This document shows, piece by piece, positions 8,868 through 55,037 of a stretch of 64,000 bases of DNA. The notes under the pieces are model-generated. The model had not been told where the DNA came from. It did no database searches and was given only the letters and a program-made list of their open reading frames with translations. The position numbers were made by a program, and so were the translations under genes. Every line of letters begins with the position of its first letter. The first letter of the stretch is position 1. This stretch comes from a virus: positions 9,131 to 73,130 of IMG/VR virus record IMGVR_UViG_3300012981_000004. One strand, written 5' to 3'.

Positions 8868-9680
8868 ATGACACGTTACGTTATGGGCTGGAACCCCGAG
8901 AACGGTTCGTTCAAGCTCGACAAGCAGCTGATCGAAGAAATCCTCGGCGGTGGCGCCGAGGCCAACAATCCGGCGATCGTCGCTCTGACCTCGACGGGCG
9001 ACGGTACTATCTCGGCAGCCGCGCTCAAGGCAGGCGTGATCGCGCGCTCGGGCGCCACCGCGGCCCGCACGGATACGACCGTCAGCGCCGCCGCTCTCCT
9101 GGCTGCTATCGGCGGCGGGGAGGCCAACGTCAACGACGCTTGGTTCGTGACCTACCAGAACACGACCGCGTTTCCGATCACCGTGGCCGGCGGGGCCGGC
9201 GTCACGGTCTCCGGCAACACCATCGTGCCGCCGAACTCGGTCGGCATGTTCCTGCTCACCTACAGCGCCGACACTCCGGCCTTCACGCTGGTCGGCGTGC
9301 AGACGGTTCCGATGGCGTCTGTGCAGTCGGTCAAGGCCCCGACCACCGCGGCCCTGGAGAGCGCCGCCATGGCGGCGGCCGACCTGGCGGGCGCGTCGAG
9401 CGTGACCTTTATCAACACGGGCACCACGCCGGGCAACCTGCAGATGCCGACGGCGGCCAACCTGATCGCGGCCATCCCCAACGCGCGCGTGGGCTACGCG
9501 TACGAGCTGTTCATCAAGAACGGCTCAGGCTCCGACAACACCGCGACCATCACAACCAACACCGGTGTCACGCTCTCTGGCACGATGACCATCGCCCAGA
9601 ACGTCACGCGGCGTTTCGTGGTGGAGATCACCGGAGCGGCGACCGTCACGGTGACCAACACAGGCTCCCTGGCGGCGTAG
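8868..9680 (+). CDS. Virion fibre/decoration protein with two tandem beta domains
   Basis: Thr/Ala/Gly-rich; two similar ~100-aa halves; located in the neck module. Confidence 0.6.
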   Translation: MTRYVMGWNPENGSFKLDKQLIEEILGGGAEANNPAIVALTSTGDGTISAAALKAGVIARSGATAARTDTTVSAAALLAAIGGGEANVNDAWFVTYQNTTAFPITVAGGAGVTVSGNTIVPPNSVGMFLLTYSADTPAFTLVGVQTVPMASVQSVKAPTTAALESAAMAAADLAGASSVTFINTGTTPGNLQMPTAANLIAAIPNARVGYAYELFIKNGSGSDNTATITTNTGVTLSGTMTIAQNVTRRFVVEITGAATVTVTNTGSLAA

Positions 9681-25479: not shown

Positions 25480-26885
25480 AGTTCTCCGACATCCCCACCA
25501 AGATCGAGACGGCGTTCGCGCGCGACGCGGGCGTCGACTACAGGGCCACCATACCGGAGAGCACGGCCGACTTCGGCCGCGCCTCGTGGGTAGCCGGCTT
25601 CCCCCCTGCCACCTTCCAGCCGATCGGGGCAGGGGGGACGCCGCCGTGGGGCGCCGACATGAACGGAGTGCTGTACGCGTCGACCATCTGGCTCAACTGG
25701 CTGAACGCCGGCGCGCCCGTGGCGTACGATGCCGCCTTCGCGTCGGAGATCGGAGGCTACCCGTCCGGAGCCACGCTCATCGCGGACAACGGCTACGGTT
25801 GGTGGTTCTCCGTCGCCGACGACAACGCCGCGGACCCGGACGCGGGCGGCGCCGGCTGGCTGCTCGTCCCCGTCGAGCGCGTCTACGCGGGCAACCCCAA
25901 CGGCCGTGTGCCGGGCTACGCGCCGCAGTCCAACACGGCGAACGCGCTCAGGCCTCCGTCAATCTGCTGGGATGATACCAACCGGGTCTTCTGGCGCTGC
26001 TCGACGACGGGCAACGCCGCGAGCGCCGTCTGGCAGCCGATCACCAACCTCATGCCGACGGGCGCCACGCTCACCGGCAACAGCAAGAGCTACACCGTGG
26101 CTGACAACGGGTGCGTCAGGGTCCGCTCCAACTCCGGCGCGGCCATGTCGGACTCTATGCCGACGGCGTCCGGCGTGGACGACGGTTGGCACTGCACGTT
26201 CGTCAACGCCGACGCGACGGCCAGCCTCACGCTCAACTTCCCGTCCGGAACGTCGCTCAACGGCGTCGCCGGCCCCACGACCCAGGCTCTCACCCCCGGC
26301 CAGACGGTCGGCATCGTGTCGGCGGGCTCGGGCGTCTACTGGAAATTCTTCGTGCCGTTCACGCCGCAGGCCGCGGCGGGCTCCGAGGGTGAGGTCCAGT
26401 ACAATGGCTCAGGAGTGCTCGCCGCTACTCCGAACGTCAAATGGAACGCGGCGCAAAACAGATTAGAGCTGGTAAAGCTCCTCGTCACGAGCGACGCGAC
26501 GATCGTCGGAGACCTCGCCGTCGACGATATCACGGCAGATCAGATAGGCGCGACCAACTACCAGGGGTTCTGGTACGGCTATCCCCCCGCATACCTCAAC
26601 GTCGCCGGCACGACGTCCCACTTCTGGACACCTCCCGGCTTCACAATGGTCATCGGCCAGGGCCTGAACATATCGCCTAACGACCAGGTGACGATCCCCC
26701 TCGGGACCACGTTCGACCAGGGCACCTTCGGCGCCACGTTCTCGTTCGTCAGCAACACGAACGGCCTCACGCAGAACGGTCCGAGTTGGATCACGGCCAA
26801 CAACACCAGCGTCACCTTCAGGAATAACACGTCGGGCTTTGTCGACATCGTTTTCTTCGCGGCCGGACGTAGGACGCCGTCATGA
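25476..26885 (+). CDS. Tail fibre protein
   Basis: RAS..GFPP.TF.PIGAGG.PP.GADMNGVL and IGGYPSGA N-terminal attachment motifs; follows DUF2612. Confidence 0.85.
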   Translation: MKFSDIPTKIETAFARDAGVDYRATIPESTADFGRASWVAGFPPATFQPIGAGGTPPWGADMNGVLYASTIWLNWLNAGAPVAYDAAFASEIGGYPSGATLIADNGYGWWFSVADDNAADPDAGGAGWLLVPVERVYAGNPNGRVPGYAPQSNTANALRPPSICWDDTNRVFWRCSTTGNAASAVWQPITNLMPTGATLTGNSKSYTVADNGCVRVRSNSGAAMSDSMPTASGVDDGWHCTFVNADATASLTLNFPSGTSLNGVAGPTTQALTPGQTVGIVSAGSGVYWKFFVPFTPQAAAGSEGEVQYNGSGVLAATPNVKWNAAQNRLELVKLLVTSDATIVGDLAVDDITADQIGATNYQGFWYGYPPAYLNVAGTTSHFWTPPGFTMVIGQGLNISPNDQVTIPLGTTFDQGTFGATFSFVSNTNGLTQNGPSWITANNTSVTFRNNTSGFVDIVFFAAGRRTPS

Positions 26886-39270: not shown

Positions 39271-39320
39271 TGTCTTCTCCTTCTGTTGCGAGGGGCGCCC
39301 TTGCCGAGCGGTCCCCCTCT

Positions 39321-39363
39321 GACGCCTCAAGCCCGCGACGGCTTTTCAGGGCCGTGCGGGCTT
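39321..39363 (-). repeat. Structured leader hairpin, copy B
   Basis: 35/43 identical to 39731-39773, with compensatory changes. Confidence 0.8.
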
Positions 39364-39449
39364 TTGGGCGGAAACCTCTCCGGGCTGCGGCGTCATGCTC
39401 TAGGAGCGTCGTGCCCGCTGTCGGAGAGGTCCCCCACCGCGGAAGTGGT

Positions 39450-39689
39450 CTACTTCTTCCGCTTGGACGCCTTCAGCTCGTCGTTCTTGGTGTAGATGCT
39501 CAGGCTGATCTTGGCATCGGGGTCGATCGCCAAGAGTTCGGCCGGCACCGGGATGCCGCCACGCGTGCTCGCGATGATGTTGGTGTTGCCCGACTGGCTC
39601 AGCTCCAGGCCGTCCTTGGTCTCCTTCTTCCCGTCGTACGGCACCTTGATGACGATGGCGCCCTTCTCGTACGCGATGGTGTAGCTCAC
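39450..39689 (-). CDS. Hypothetical protein
   Basis: 79 aa, GTG start behind GGAGAAGACAAA. Confidence 0.75.
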   Translation of the reverse strand: MSYTIAYEKGAIVIKVPYDGKKETKDGLELSQSGNTNIIASTRGGIPVPAELLAIDPDAKISLSIYTKNDELKASKRKK

Positions 39690-39730
39690 TTTGTCTTCTC
39701 CGCTCGTTGGTTGCTTTGGGGGACCTCCCC

Positions 39731-39773
39731 GACGCCTTAACCCCGCTACGGGTTCTCAGGCCCGAGCGGGGTT
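39731..39773 (-). repeat. Structured leader hairpin, copy A
   Basis: Partner of 39321-39363. Confidence 0.8.
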
Positions 39774-39798
39774 GTTCGTTGGGGAGCGGGCCGCGGCT

Positions 39799-40114: not shown

Positions 40115-40144
40115 ATTATACCTCCTCGGGTGAACAAAAGTAAA
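40115..40144 (-). promoter_or_regulatory. Sigma70-like promoter TTTACT-18-TATAAT
   Basis: Consensus -10; intergenic. Confidence 0.75.
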
Positions 40145-53620: not shown

Positions 53621-55037
53621 TGGCCATCTCCTTCTTCACGTACGGCACGAGCTTGCGGCCCGCCGCCGTCTGTTTCACCACGCCGACCATGCGACCGGCT
53701 GCCCTCATCTCCCCCCTGTGGTAGGCCACGTCCGCCCCCGTGGCCTTGCTCGCCTTGTAGTGGGTTCGTACCGCCTGGGCGATCTCGTCGGTCGTCCACT
53801 TTTCCATGTCGAGCAGGAGCTTGATGAAGGCTCCCGAGCCCACGCCCTCCTTGGGCTTCGGCATACGGAGCACGTCGGCCATCACCATCTGCGCGGGCTT
53901 GGCAGGCTTGGCCTTGGCCTCCTTAGGCCTGCTGACGGCGACGCTTGAGGTCGTGGTCGGCCTCTCGCCATACTCCACGTCGCGCACCGGATCGTCCGAG
54001 CCGACAGGGGGGCGCAGCAGGTTCCACTCGCGCAGCGTCGGCGACGTGATCTCCTTGCCAGTTTCGATCGAGGCCTTGACGCCTCTCGCCAGCCACGCGC
54101 CGACGGTCGGGCAGACGCCGCGCGCGATCTCGGCGGCCCTGGCGTTGGGCCCCTTGGGCGTGAAGTGGAAGTCCAGCGGGAAGCCCGACAGCAGCTGCAT
54201 CTCCTCCGTGGAGATGAAGCGGTGCTCCGTGGGGTGCACGATGTTGTAACCCACGACGGCGCCGCCCGGTCCCTCGACCGGGAGCCTGTAGTGACCGTAG
54301 GAGGGCCTACCTTTGACGTTGCCCTGCGCGTTCCTCTCGCGCTTCTCCTCCGGGTGCTTGCGCTCCCAGAAGTGCACCAGACGTTCGCCCGGCTTCACCT
54401 GCGCCAGCCGCTTGGCCGTGAAGTACTTGGGCTTCTCCCACATCGGCTCTCCGATTGGCTTGTCGGGCAGCACGTCGAGCGGCGAAGGAGGCGGGGCCCA
54501 GTTGGGCATGATCGGCCGGAACTCGACGCGGTGCTGCACCAGGAAGACGCGGCGGCGCACCTGAGGCAGCCCTAGGTGCTGGGCGTCGTGCAGCAGCACC
54601 GTGGTCGAGTAGCCGTCCTCGGCGGCGTCCCTGGCCAGCTCCTCGGCGAACTCGCGCCCCTTGCTCCAGAGCTGCGTCACGCTCTCGGTCGCGTAGACGG
54701 CGGGCCTGAGCTTGCGGCGGAGCTGGGCGCAGCAGCGGCTGCACTCGACGCGGGGGTCGGTCCGCCACTTGTCGGGTCCGCGGGTCTTGGTGTAGCCCGC
54801 GACCGACCAGGCTGCGCAGGGAGGGTTGGCGAAGACGAAGTCGACCTTGTCGCGGTACTCGTCGATCGGCCAGTTGTCCTTGCCGACGATGATCGGCCGG
54901 CCCGGGAAGTTATGGCGCGCTGTCCTCACGCCGTAGTTGTTCTCCTCGAAGTGCGCCAGCACGTTGAAGTGCCGTCCCACGCCGAGGGCGAAGCCACCGG
55001 CGAACACGTCGGCAGCCAAAGCCGTCAACTCTCTCAT
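53613..55037 (-). CDS. C5 DNA cytosine methyltransferase with extra C-terminal domain
   Basis: DVFAGGF, NPPC, ESV, LPQVRRRVF, HPTEHRFISTEE..SGFP, ARGVCP. Confidence 0.85.
   Translation of the reverse strand: MRELTALAADVFAGGFALGVGRHFNVLAHFEENNYGVRTARHNFPGRPIIVGKDNWPIDEYRDKVDFVFANPPCAAWSVAGYTKTRGPDKWRTDPRVECSRCCAQLRRKLRPAVYATESVTQLWSKGREFAEELARDAAEDGYSTTVLLHDAQHLGLPQVRRRVFLVQHRVEFRPIMPNWAPPPSPLDVLPDKPIGEPMWEKPKYFTAKRLAQVKPGERLVHFWERKHPEEKRERNAQGNVKGRPSYGHYRLPVEGPGGAVVGYNIVHPTEHRFISTEEMQLLSGFPLDFHFTPKGPNARAAEIARGVCPTVGAWLARGVKASIETGKEITSPTLREWNLLRPPVGSDDPVRDVEYGERPTTTSSVAVSRPKEAKAKPAKPAQMVMADVLRMPKPKEGVGSGAFIKLLLDMEKWTTDEIAQAVRTHYKASKATGADVAYHRGEMRAAGRMVGVVKQTAAGRKLVPYVKKEMANV

Follow-up and report, generated by a model that had tools for sequence, protein, structure and literature searches.

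The question raised by this locus is what purpose is served by two nearly identical hairpins that bracket a single small gene in the early region of a phage. The window analysed here is a stretch of 64,000 nucleotides from an uncultured phage (source virus record of 75,900 bp, about 65–66% GC), whose polA is ~40% identical to that of Dinoroseobacter phage R5C and in whose genome no integrase or tyrosine recombinase (PF00589) was found. Both hairpins lie on the minus strand of the early region, at the head of a run of small genes, downstream of a promoter which, judging from its sequence, would start the early transcript; from this promoter it is ~340 nt to the first hairpin (A) and ~750 nt to the second (B). 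The preliminary description of the locus offered three options for such an RNA (put/nut-like antiterminator, processing site or protein-binding leader), and among these the processing site is the best-fitting one. The features needed to follow the argument are listed below in the direction of transcription; L001 and L004 are two syntenic phage contigs.

40115 to 40144, minus strand: predicted sigma70-like promoter, TTTACT-18-TATAAT, kept in L001 and L004
39799 to 39930, minus strand: 43-codon ORF, with its stop 26 nt before hairpin A
39777 to 39786, minus strand: 5' arm of the local lower stem of hairpin A, pairing with 39734–39725
39739 to 39773, minus strand: core of hairpin A, with foot CCCGC (39770–39766) / GCGGG (39746–39742), upper stem and a 1-nt 3' bulge
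39760 to 39753, minus strand: loop of hairpin A
39730 to 39739, minus strand: conserved 3' tail of hairpin A
39718 to 39730, minus strand: small second hairpin downstream of A, not a conserved feature of the family
39692 to 39701, minus strand: ribosome-binding site of the 79-aa gene, GGAGAAGACA
39450 to 39689, minus strand: 79-aa ORF of unknown function, between hairpins A and B
39329 to 39363, minus strand: core of hairpin B, with foot 39360–39356 / 39336–39332 and loop 39350–39343
39320 to 39329, minus strand: conserved 3' tail of hairpin B
39290 to 39319, minus strand: second hairpin after B, present in L001 and absent in L004
39271 to 39280, minus strand: ribosome-binding site of the 92-aa gene (39270–38992), GGAGAAGACA

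The two 43-nt copies that had been reported on the minus strand (39731–39773 and 39321–39363) are indeed there, with exactly eight differences between them, including two C-G/G-C swaps (39771:39741 versus 39361:39331, and 39761:39752 versus 39351:39342); the remaining differences are one loop purine, one tail purine and two that move the 1-nt bulge with the pair kept. A degenerate 29-nt pattern finds these two sites and no other in the window (0 in 100 shuffles), and in the 75.9-kb genome covariance models detected no further one. The folding energy is about -24 kcal/mol per copy (z about -3.6); since comparably stable hairpins are common in the window genome, the evidence lies in the duplication and the covariation, not in the energy. 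Some of the surroundings described earlier turned out to be local: the second hairpin after each copy is present in the window but is missing in L004 and is not conserved in the family, and both ribosome-binding sites are present, the 10-nt identity between them being lost in L001 and L004.

Several observations concern the promoter region in its own right. Four sigma70-like promoters of the window (40144, 35307, 50010 and 31279, minus strand) have TTTACT in common, and most of them carry a CCGGG-type motif in or around the spacer; the promoters of phages TM26 and Pam3 carry a similar CCCCGGGG palindrome. A double-HTH gene (40524–40165) lies directly upstream of the promoter at 40144, possibly as one half of an operator-regulator pair. 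Downstream of the promoter, the window has a hydrophobic 49-codon frame (40081–39932) as its first ORF and L001 an arginine-rich one of 44 codons (9526–9660, plus strand); L004 is without one.

The arrangement around the 79-aa gene is shared with other phages. Homologues of the 79-aa protein with 90% and 66% identity are found in L001 and L004, both of which have a hairpin on each side of the gene, with further compensatory changes, whereas the spacers, the second hairpin, the ribosome-binding site and the next gene differ from those of the window. A remote homologue in G001 (HHalign probability 84%, E 8e-6) lies between the same two hairpin types, so that A-type and B-type hairpins bracket this ORF in four genomes (window, L001, L004 and G001), which argues that the duplication is old and that each copy has been maintained. 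The protein itself has no Pfam or PHROG match, no family or fold could be assigned to it, only three to four relatives were found and its predicted model has a pLDDT of 45; on these grounds it was rejected as the ligand of the hairpins. Its profile matches short repeats in very long proteins (53 stretches in the 4135 aa of P0007) and, as a lead only, Atlas features point to viral clusters of 70–72 aa.

Beyond this group, the hairpins belong to a family of 40 copies in 26 phage records, including the cultured Rhizobium phage RHph_TM26, which has two copies (near 26038–26105 and 53895–53960 of MN988465), one of them directly behind the capsid gene. The carriers are diverse GC-rich phages of 14–113 kb, which points to a host factor, and each genome has one to four copies, in small-gene early regions. 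A pattern containing the loop located copies in 7 more viral records, and the covariance-model search that had been suggested was fruitful, adding copies whose loops differ and bringing the number to as many as four in one genome. With a loop-free pattern containing the tail, 26 distinct viral hits were obtained; the foot extension and upper stem, for which they were not selected, are present in 21 of them, as opposed to 16 of the 116 bacterial hits (Fisher p 7e-11). In the GTDB genomes this pattern returned mostly unstructured chance hits. The strict pattern had no hit in viral contigs and none in GTDB genomes, and a looser stem pattern retrieved, in viral contigs, mostly opposite-strand terminators and unrelated hairpins. 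The 40 copies kept are those with sense context. Their selection is biased in part, since the loop had led to 17 of them and the tail to 12; the tail is supported by the loop-found set, which has invariant or nearly invariant G columns beyond the pattern, and the stem by the tail-found set. Nine tail-pattern hits (L171, L173–L175, L178, L181, L182, L186 and L192) were left out, being in or after opposite-strand genes or without clear sense context. In L175, L186 and L192 the hairpin follows an opposite-strand gene, and that of L186 serves a capsid-like gene, read in the other direction, as an ordinary U-tract terminator.

The Rfam search also proposed earlier gave no family: for the window and 11 further loci there was no match to Rfam 15 at the gathering threshold, the only hit being a chance snoRNA at E 3.8. 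Blastn of the region and of the single hairpins against cultured phages returned nothing relevant, and no copy at E below 0.1 was found in Dinoroseobacter phage R5C, Pan1 or Pam3. Real and conserved, the hairpins form a phage RNA element that Rfam does not contain.

The anatomy of this element can be resolved from the alignment. Across 27 aligned copies, with no correction for kinship, pairing along the 12-bp stem amounts to 95% and 7 of the 12 pairs covary, while in controls slid along the same alignment pairing falls to 34–48%; the covariation score is 0.44, versus 0.14 in shuffled and at most 0.09 in slid controls. Five stem pairs carry no information, because they are the search anchor. 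Together with a strictly sense orientation, this covariation bears out the earlier proposal of a conserved structured RNA, here one of the sense strand. The foot CCCGC/GCGGG is invariant in the 40 copies, the upper helix has at least 11 bp in 35 of them (12 bp in both window copies) with loops of 3–11 nt, and its 3' bulge may be any base. The 3' tail, YYRAGGMGUCR, is conserved as sequence, without clear covariation.

Below the foot, the structure is less regular. The lower stem reaches at least 4 bp in 36 of the 40 copies, is short or absent in several, and has locally only 3–5 bp in window copy B, where a 7-nt perfect complement of the tail offers an alternative:

39389 to 39395, minus strand: 7-nt perfect complement of the B tail, pairing with 39326–39320 as an alternative lower stem

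This pairing has a probability of 0.4–0.9 in long folds and 0 in the short fold. Compared with composition-matched shuffles, the lower stem is not better (-5.8 versus -5.3 kcal/mol). Native 5' and 3' flanks nevertheless fold better with each other than when swapped, by -1.35 kcal/mol (permutation p=0.002, kinship ignored), and the 5' flank has 48% C versus 16% G.

The loop behaves differently in two parts of the family. All 23 copies of a core clade, with six loop sequences among them, have a 5-bp upper stem and a loop of 7–8 nt in which a U six bases from the 3' end is followed by N-purine, and 22 of the 23 have A at the position equivalent to tRNA position 37; U at this place followed by N-purine is the register of the tRNA anticodon U-turn. 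It was a model trained on CCUGARAA that supplied the five variant loops. In the wider family the loop varies freely, the U-turn register being present in 1 of the 17 copies that lie beyond the core clade. The GNRA loop of the preliminary description does not hold throughout: ViennaRNA gives an open 8-nt loop, the required U-A pair having a probability of ~0.01, and GNRA fits 18 of the 23 core-clade copies (5 fail), while the U-turn register holds in all.

Two further loci were seen. At ~1500–1575 of L320 (plus strand; G027), a CCUGAAAA loop and the tail go with an altered foot and a bulge on the 5' side, which means that the foot is not strictly constant. Two other phages share another conserved intergenic RNA, ~250 nt long (L010, 1455–1700, plus strand; L007, 1140–1385, minus strand), with two copies of the same apical hairpin, one complementary 7-mer able to pair with either loop, long stems that appear to covary and no Rfam match.

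A conserved loop and a conserved tail could mean that a host or phage protein, a nuclease other than RNase III or an RNA reads the foot, the tail and the core-clade U-turn loop as a sequence-specific site, controlling translation or stability of the next gene or decoying enzymes that bind anticodon loops. This reading, which we consider unlikely, draws on the U-turn register common to the core clade with its nearly constant A, on a tail conserved without covariation, on A and B types that stay distinct around the same gene, with an unchanged loop, at no more than 66% protein identity, and on the recurrence of the apical module beside a complementary 7-mer in the RNA of L007 and L010. It has to contend with the free loop of the wider family and with the origin of the five variant loops in a model trained on CCUGARAA; additionally, a search for a complement of the loop came up empty, both in the sense-strand sequence up to 600 nt from each copy and along the whole transcribed strand of the window genome, and no shared candidate protein emerged, the 79-aa ORF having neither family nor fold.

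The position of the copies relative to genes is consistent. In 35 of the 40 copies a stop codon on the same strand is found no more than 45 nt upstream, and in 34 a ribosome-binding site with a start follows within 85 nt; both occur in 29 of 40, compared with 0 of 40 in antisense and 6% at random positions. The hairpin lies 4–37 nt after stop codons, the upstream genes including early hypothetical genes, the major head protein and the head protease, some copies thus standing directly behind capsid or protease genes. Since the gap often leaves no room for a promoter, the element is presumably read through. An intrinsic terminator was rejected for either strand, so that the element is not a plain terminator: no copy has at least 4 U in the 8 nt after the stem on the sense strand (0 of 40), on the antisense strand runs of at least 5 U occur in 1 of 40 and of at least 4 in 4 of 40, and the hairpins are not listed as terminators.

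Such a position would also suit a passive punctuation mark that needs no endonuclease, i.e. a REP-like block to 3' exonucleases, a pause or a partial termination independent of a U tract, by which the upstream gene would be expressed more than the downstream gene. Attenuating hairpins are usual after capsid genes, and the short distance from stop codons, including those of capsid genes, agrees with this. The tail also fits the transcription pause consensus G-10/Y-1/G+1 when its variable base is C or U, a fit that nevertheless fails in about one third of the curated copies. The lack of a U tract speaks against termination, and the fixed helix length, the conserved tail and the co-adapted flanks are left unexplained; we regard this explanation as unlikely.

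A hairpin acting at the DNA level, as a single strand (whether as an IS200/IS605-type end, as a cassette site like attC or as a stretch of homology promoting the shuffling of early genes), is suggested by the variation between relatives of the genes beside the hairpins and by the bulged palindrome with a conserved tail ending ~10–11 nt from the foot, which resembles the right end of IS608 (PMC3201880). We judge it very improbable: the required guide, a dinucleotide complementary to the cleavage tetranucleotide, is at the 5' foot in 1 of 40 copies (PMC3201880), the bulged base, an extrahelical T in such ends, is T in 4 of 40, GTT and AAC of the invariant attC core occur in 5 and 9 of 40, no tyrosine recombinase, Y1 transposase or TnpB was found in the genome, and the 92-aa gene is gained or lost among relatives without any accompanying hairpin. 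Membership of IS200/IS605 ends, attC, nut and put was rejected in each case on the failure of a defining feature. The idea of a phage RNA polymerase or a hairpin promoter gave no PF00940 match, but the controls were equally silent.

The antiterminator of the preliminary description, a put- or nut-like RNA modifying RNA polymerase, in the case of put through the zinc-binding domain of beta-prime, would be favoured by the placement of the two sites, 340 and 750 nt beyond a sigma70-like early promoter, and by the apical 10 nt of copy B, which resemble lambda boxB. It loses ground with the whole family: the boxB-like loop is absent in 22 of 40 copies and the loop is variable, a boxA-like sequence (one mismatch allowed) is present in 1 of 40, there is no conserved N-like ORF, the Arg-rich first ORF being found only in L001, and copies are scattered, up to four per genome, some several kb apart or behind capsid genes. 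Moreover, put needs two abutting stems, once per early operon (PMC9378689), while here the second hairpin is optional, missing from L004 and many other members, and at least 8 nt away. An antiterminator is therefore, in our estimation, highly improbable.

The family may also be compared with a solitary CRISPR-repeat mimic (Racr) cut by Cas6e. The foot equals the stem of the type I-E repeat. Racrs are, like the hairpins, intergenic phage RNAs (PMC10651486), but the arms of the foot are ~19 nt apart and not 4, the tail is unlike the 5' handle, no Rfam CRISPR-repeat matches and copies after capsid genes would be unexpected, all of which makes this origin extremely unlikely.

The reading that we tentatively favour, with a confidence just short of even, is that the hairpins act in cis as signals for mRNA processing, like those of the T7 early region. 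In the mechanism that we infer, which extends to transcription, read-through, the identity of the nuclease, the cut position and the effect on stability, host RNA polymerase would transcribe the early operon from 40144–40115 through both elements, each of which would fold into an irregular helix of ~18–22 bp (a 12-bp upper helix above a bulge or internal loop, with a lower stem beneath). The cut would be made by host RNase III at the helix junction, most likely on one strand only, and would break up the polycistronic transcript into messages the size of single genes, one new end of which would carry a protective hairpin, 20–65 nt ahead of the next start codon. The predicted cuts would fall at 39740/39739 (3' strand) and/or 39771/39770 (5' strand) in A, and at 39330/39329 and/or 39361/39360 in B.

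The enzyme of E. coli requires an 11-bp helix, whatever the sequence of the loop; where there is an internal loop, it cuts one strand only and a protective hairpin stays behind (PMC1540722). An upper helix of this length in 35 of 40 copies, with loops of 3–11 nt, is counted in favour of RNase III. With a 2-nt staggered cut at the foot, in the register that we deduce, both half-sites have G at position 4; in the lower half-site this is G-C paired in 32 of 40 copies, with A at position 3 in 32, of which 15 are U-paired. A-U is preferred in vivo at position 3 (PMC6212723). [quoted passage not shown] The Rhodobacter capsulatus enzyme is reported to cut a substrate that the E. coli enzyme cannot (PMC8708148), so host RNase III rules may differ. 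The U-turn loop conserved in the core clade, something that RNase III does not need, counts against this interpretation. In a T7-type site a lower stem below the bulge or internal loop brings the whole to about two helical turns; here the lower stem of at least 4 bp in 36 of 40 copies and the better folding of native flanks speak for such a stem, while its shortness or absence in several copies and its failure to exceed the shuffles speak against it. The foot and tail were not found in the stems flanking 16S and 23S rRNA of three alphaproteobacteria, a further point against the reading. A rather improbable variant would be a widespread punctuation element whose foot and YYRAGGMGUC tail are read sequence-specifically by a host factor other than canonical RNase III and which in one clade would carry an anticodon-arm mimic on top, binding or decoying tRNA-targeting defence or modification enzymes.

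In the window itself a further pairing is superimposed on this plan, involving the spacer between the 79-aa gene and hairpin B:

39400 to 39436, minus strand: spacer complementary to both flanks of hairpin A, pairing with 39733–39717 (through 39436–39420), 39791–39785 and 39802–39796

The complementarity includes 17 contiguous pairs, the spacer being the best partner among 2,810 genome windows, and in whole-transcript folds the helix has a probability near 1 and displaces the 5' arm of the local lower stem of A. As modelled, this long-range helix of ~30 bp would enclose the 79-aa gene and could plausibly be an RNase III target itself. It is mutually exclusive with a local hairpin (39435–39422/39382–39370) and also competes with the lower stem of B. 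Being absent in L001 and L004, it was rejected as the core structure and may be either recent or an assembly feature; the spacer is possibly a switch or a recent inverted duplication.

If the hairpins are RNase III signals, T7-style message processing would be extended to a broad set of GC-rich phages, whose hosts are probably Alphaproteobacteria (one cultured carrier infects Rhizobium), and the family would provide 40 natural substrates at odds with the recognition rule of E. coli, from which it could be worked out what the RNase III of these hosts recognises. If they are cut by something other than RNase III, a conserved hairpin-plus-tail signal common to diverse phages would point to an undescribed host RNA-handling step. 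In both cases the elements are short, easily synthesised and amenable to a cultured phage-host pair.

Based on the comparison with known systems, the family shares traits with several of them. With HK022 put and lambdoid nut sites it has in common a structured nascent RNA after an early promoter, its commonest loop being boxB-like, but it differs in its single stem, variable loop and scattered copies and in having neither boxA nor a conserved N-like gene. REP/PU and IS200/IS605 palindromes are similarly GC-rich and bulged, just after stops and with a conserved flank; unlike them, the family is restricted to phages and has no guide sequence, no fixed extrahelical T and no transposase. The core-clade arm follows the tRNA anticodon stem-loop and its YUNR turn in the 5-bp stem, the 7–8-nt loop, the U at position 33, the purine two bases on and A37, whereas its loops are mostly of 8 nt, embedded in mRNA and not maintained in the wider family.

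The closest likeness is to the RNase III sites of the T7 early region (R0.3, R0.5, R1, R1.1 and R1.3). When folded, these sites have an upper helix of 9–13 bp, an internal loop and a lower stem, which is the plan of the family. The cut is 27–35 nt before the next ATG in four of the five sites (R1.1 position from PMC8708148), and T7 sites and family both lie about 20–60 nt before the next start. The T7 sites are likewise several related intergenic hairpins (PMC4858673, PMC8708148) in an early operon read by host RNA polymerase, a transcription that is predicted here. Their half-site (AAGG or CAGG, then U/G; NNAGG) resembles the tail YYRAGGMGUC, although as a mirror image, since AGG is on the 3' strand of the lower stem in the family and on the 5' strand of the upper helix in T7. 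Unlike the T7 sites, the family combines an invariant GC foot, which is an E. coli antideterminant, with a bulge on the 3' side of its upper helix and, among the core-clade copies, a U-turn loop; cleavage is established for the T7 sites and predicted for the family. Taken as a whole, the element may well work like the T7 processing signals, with features that those lack.
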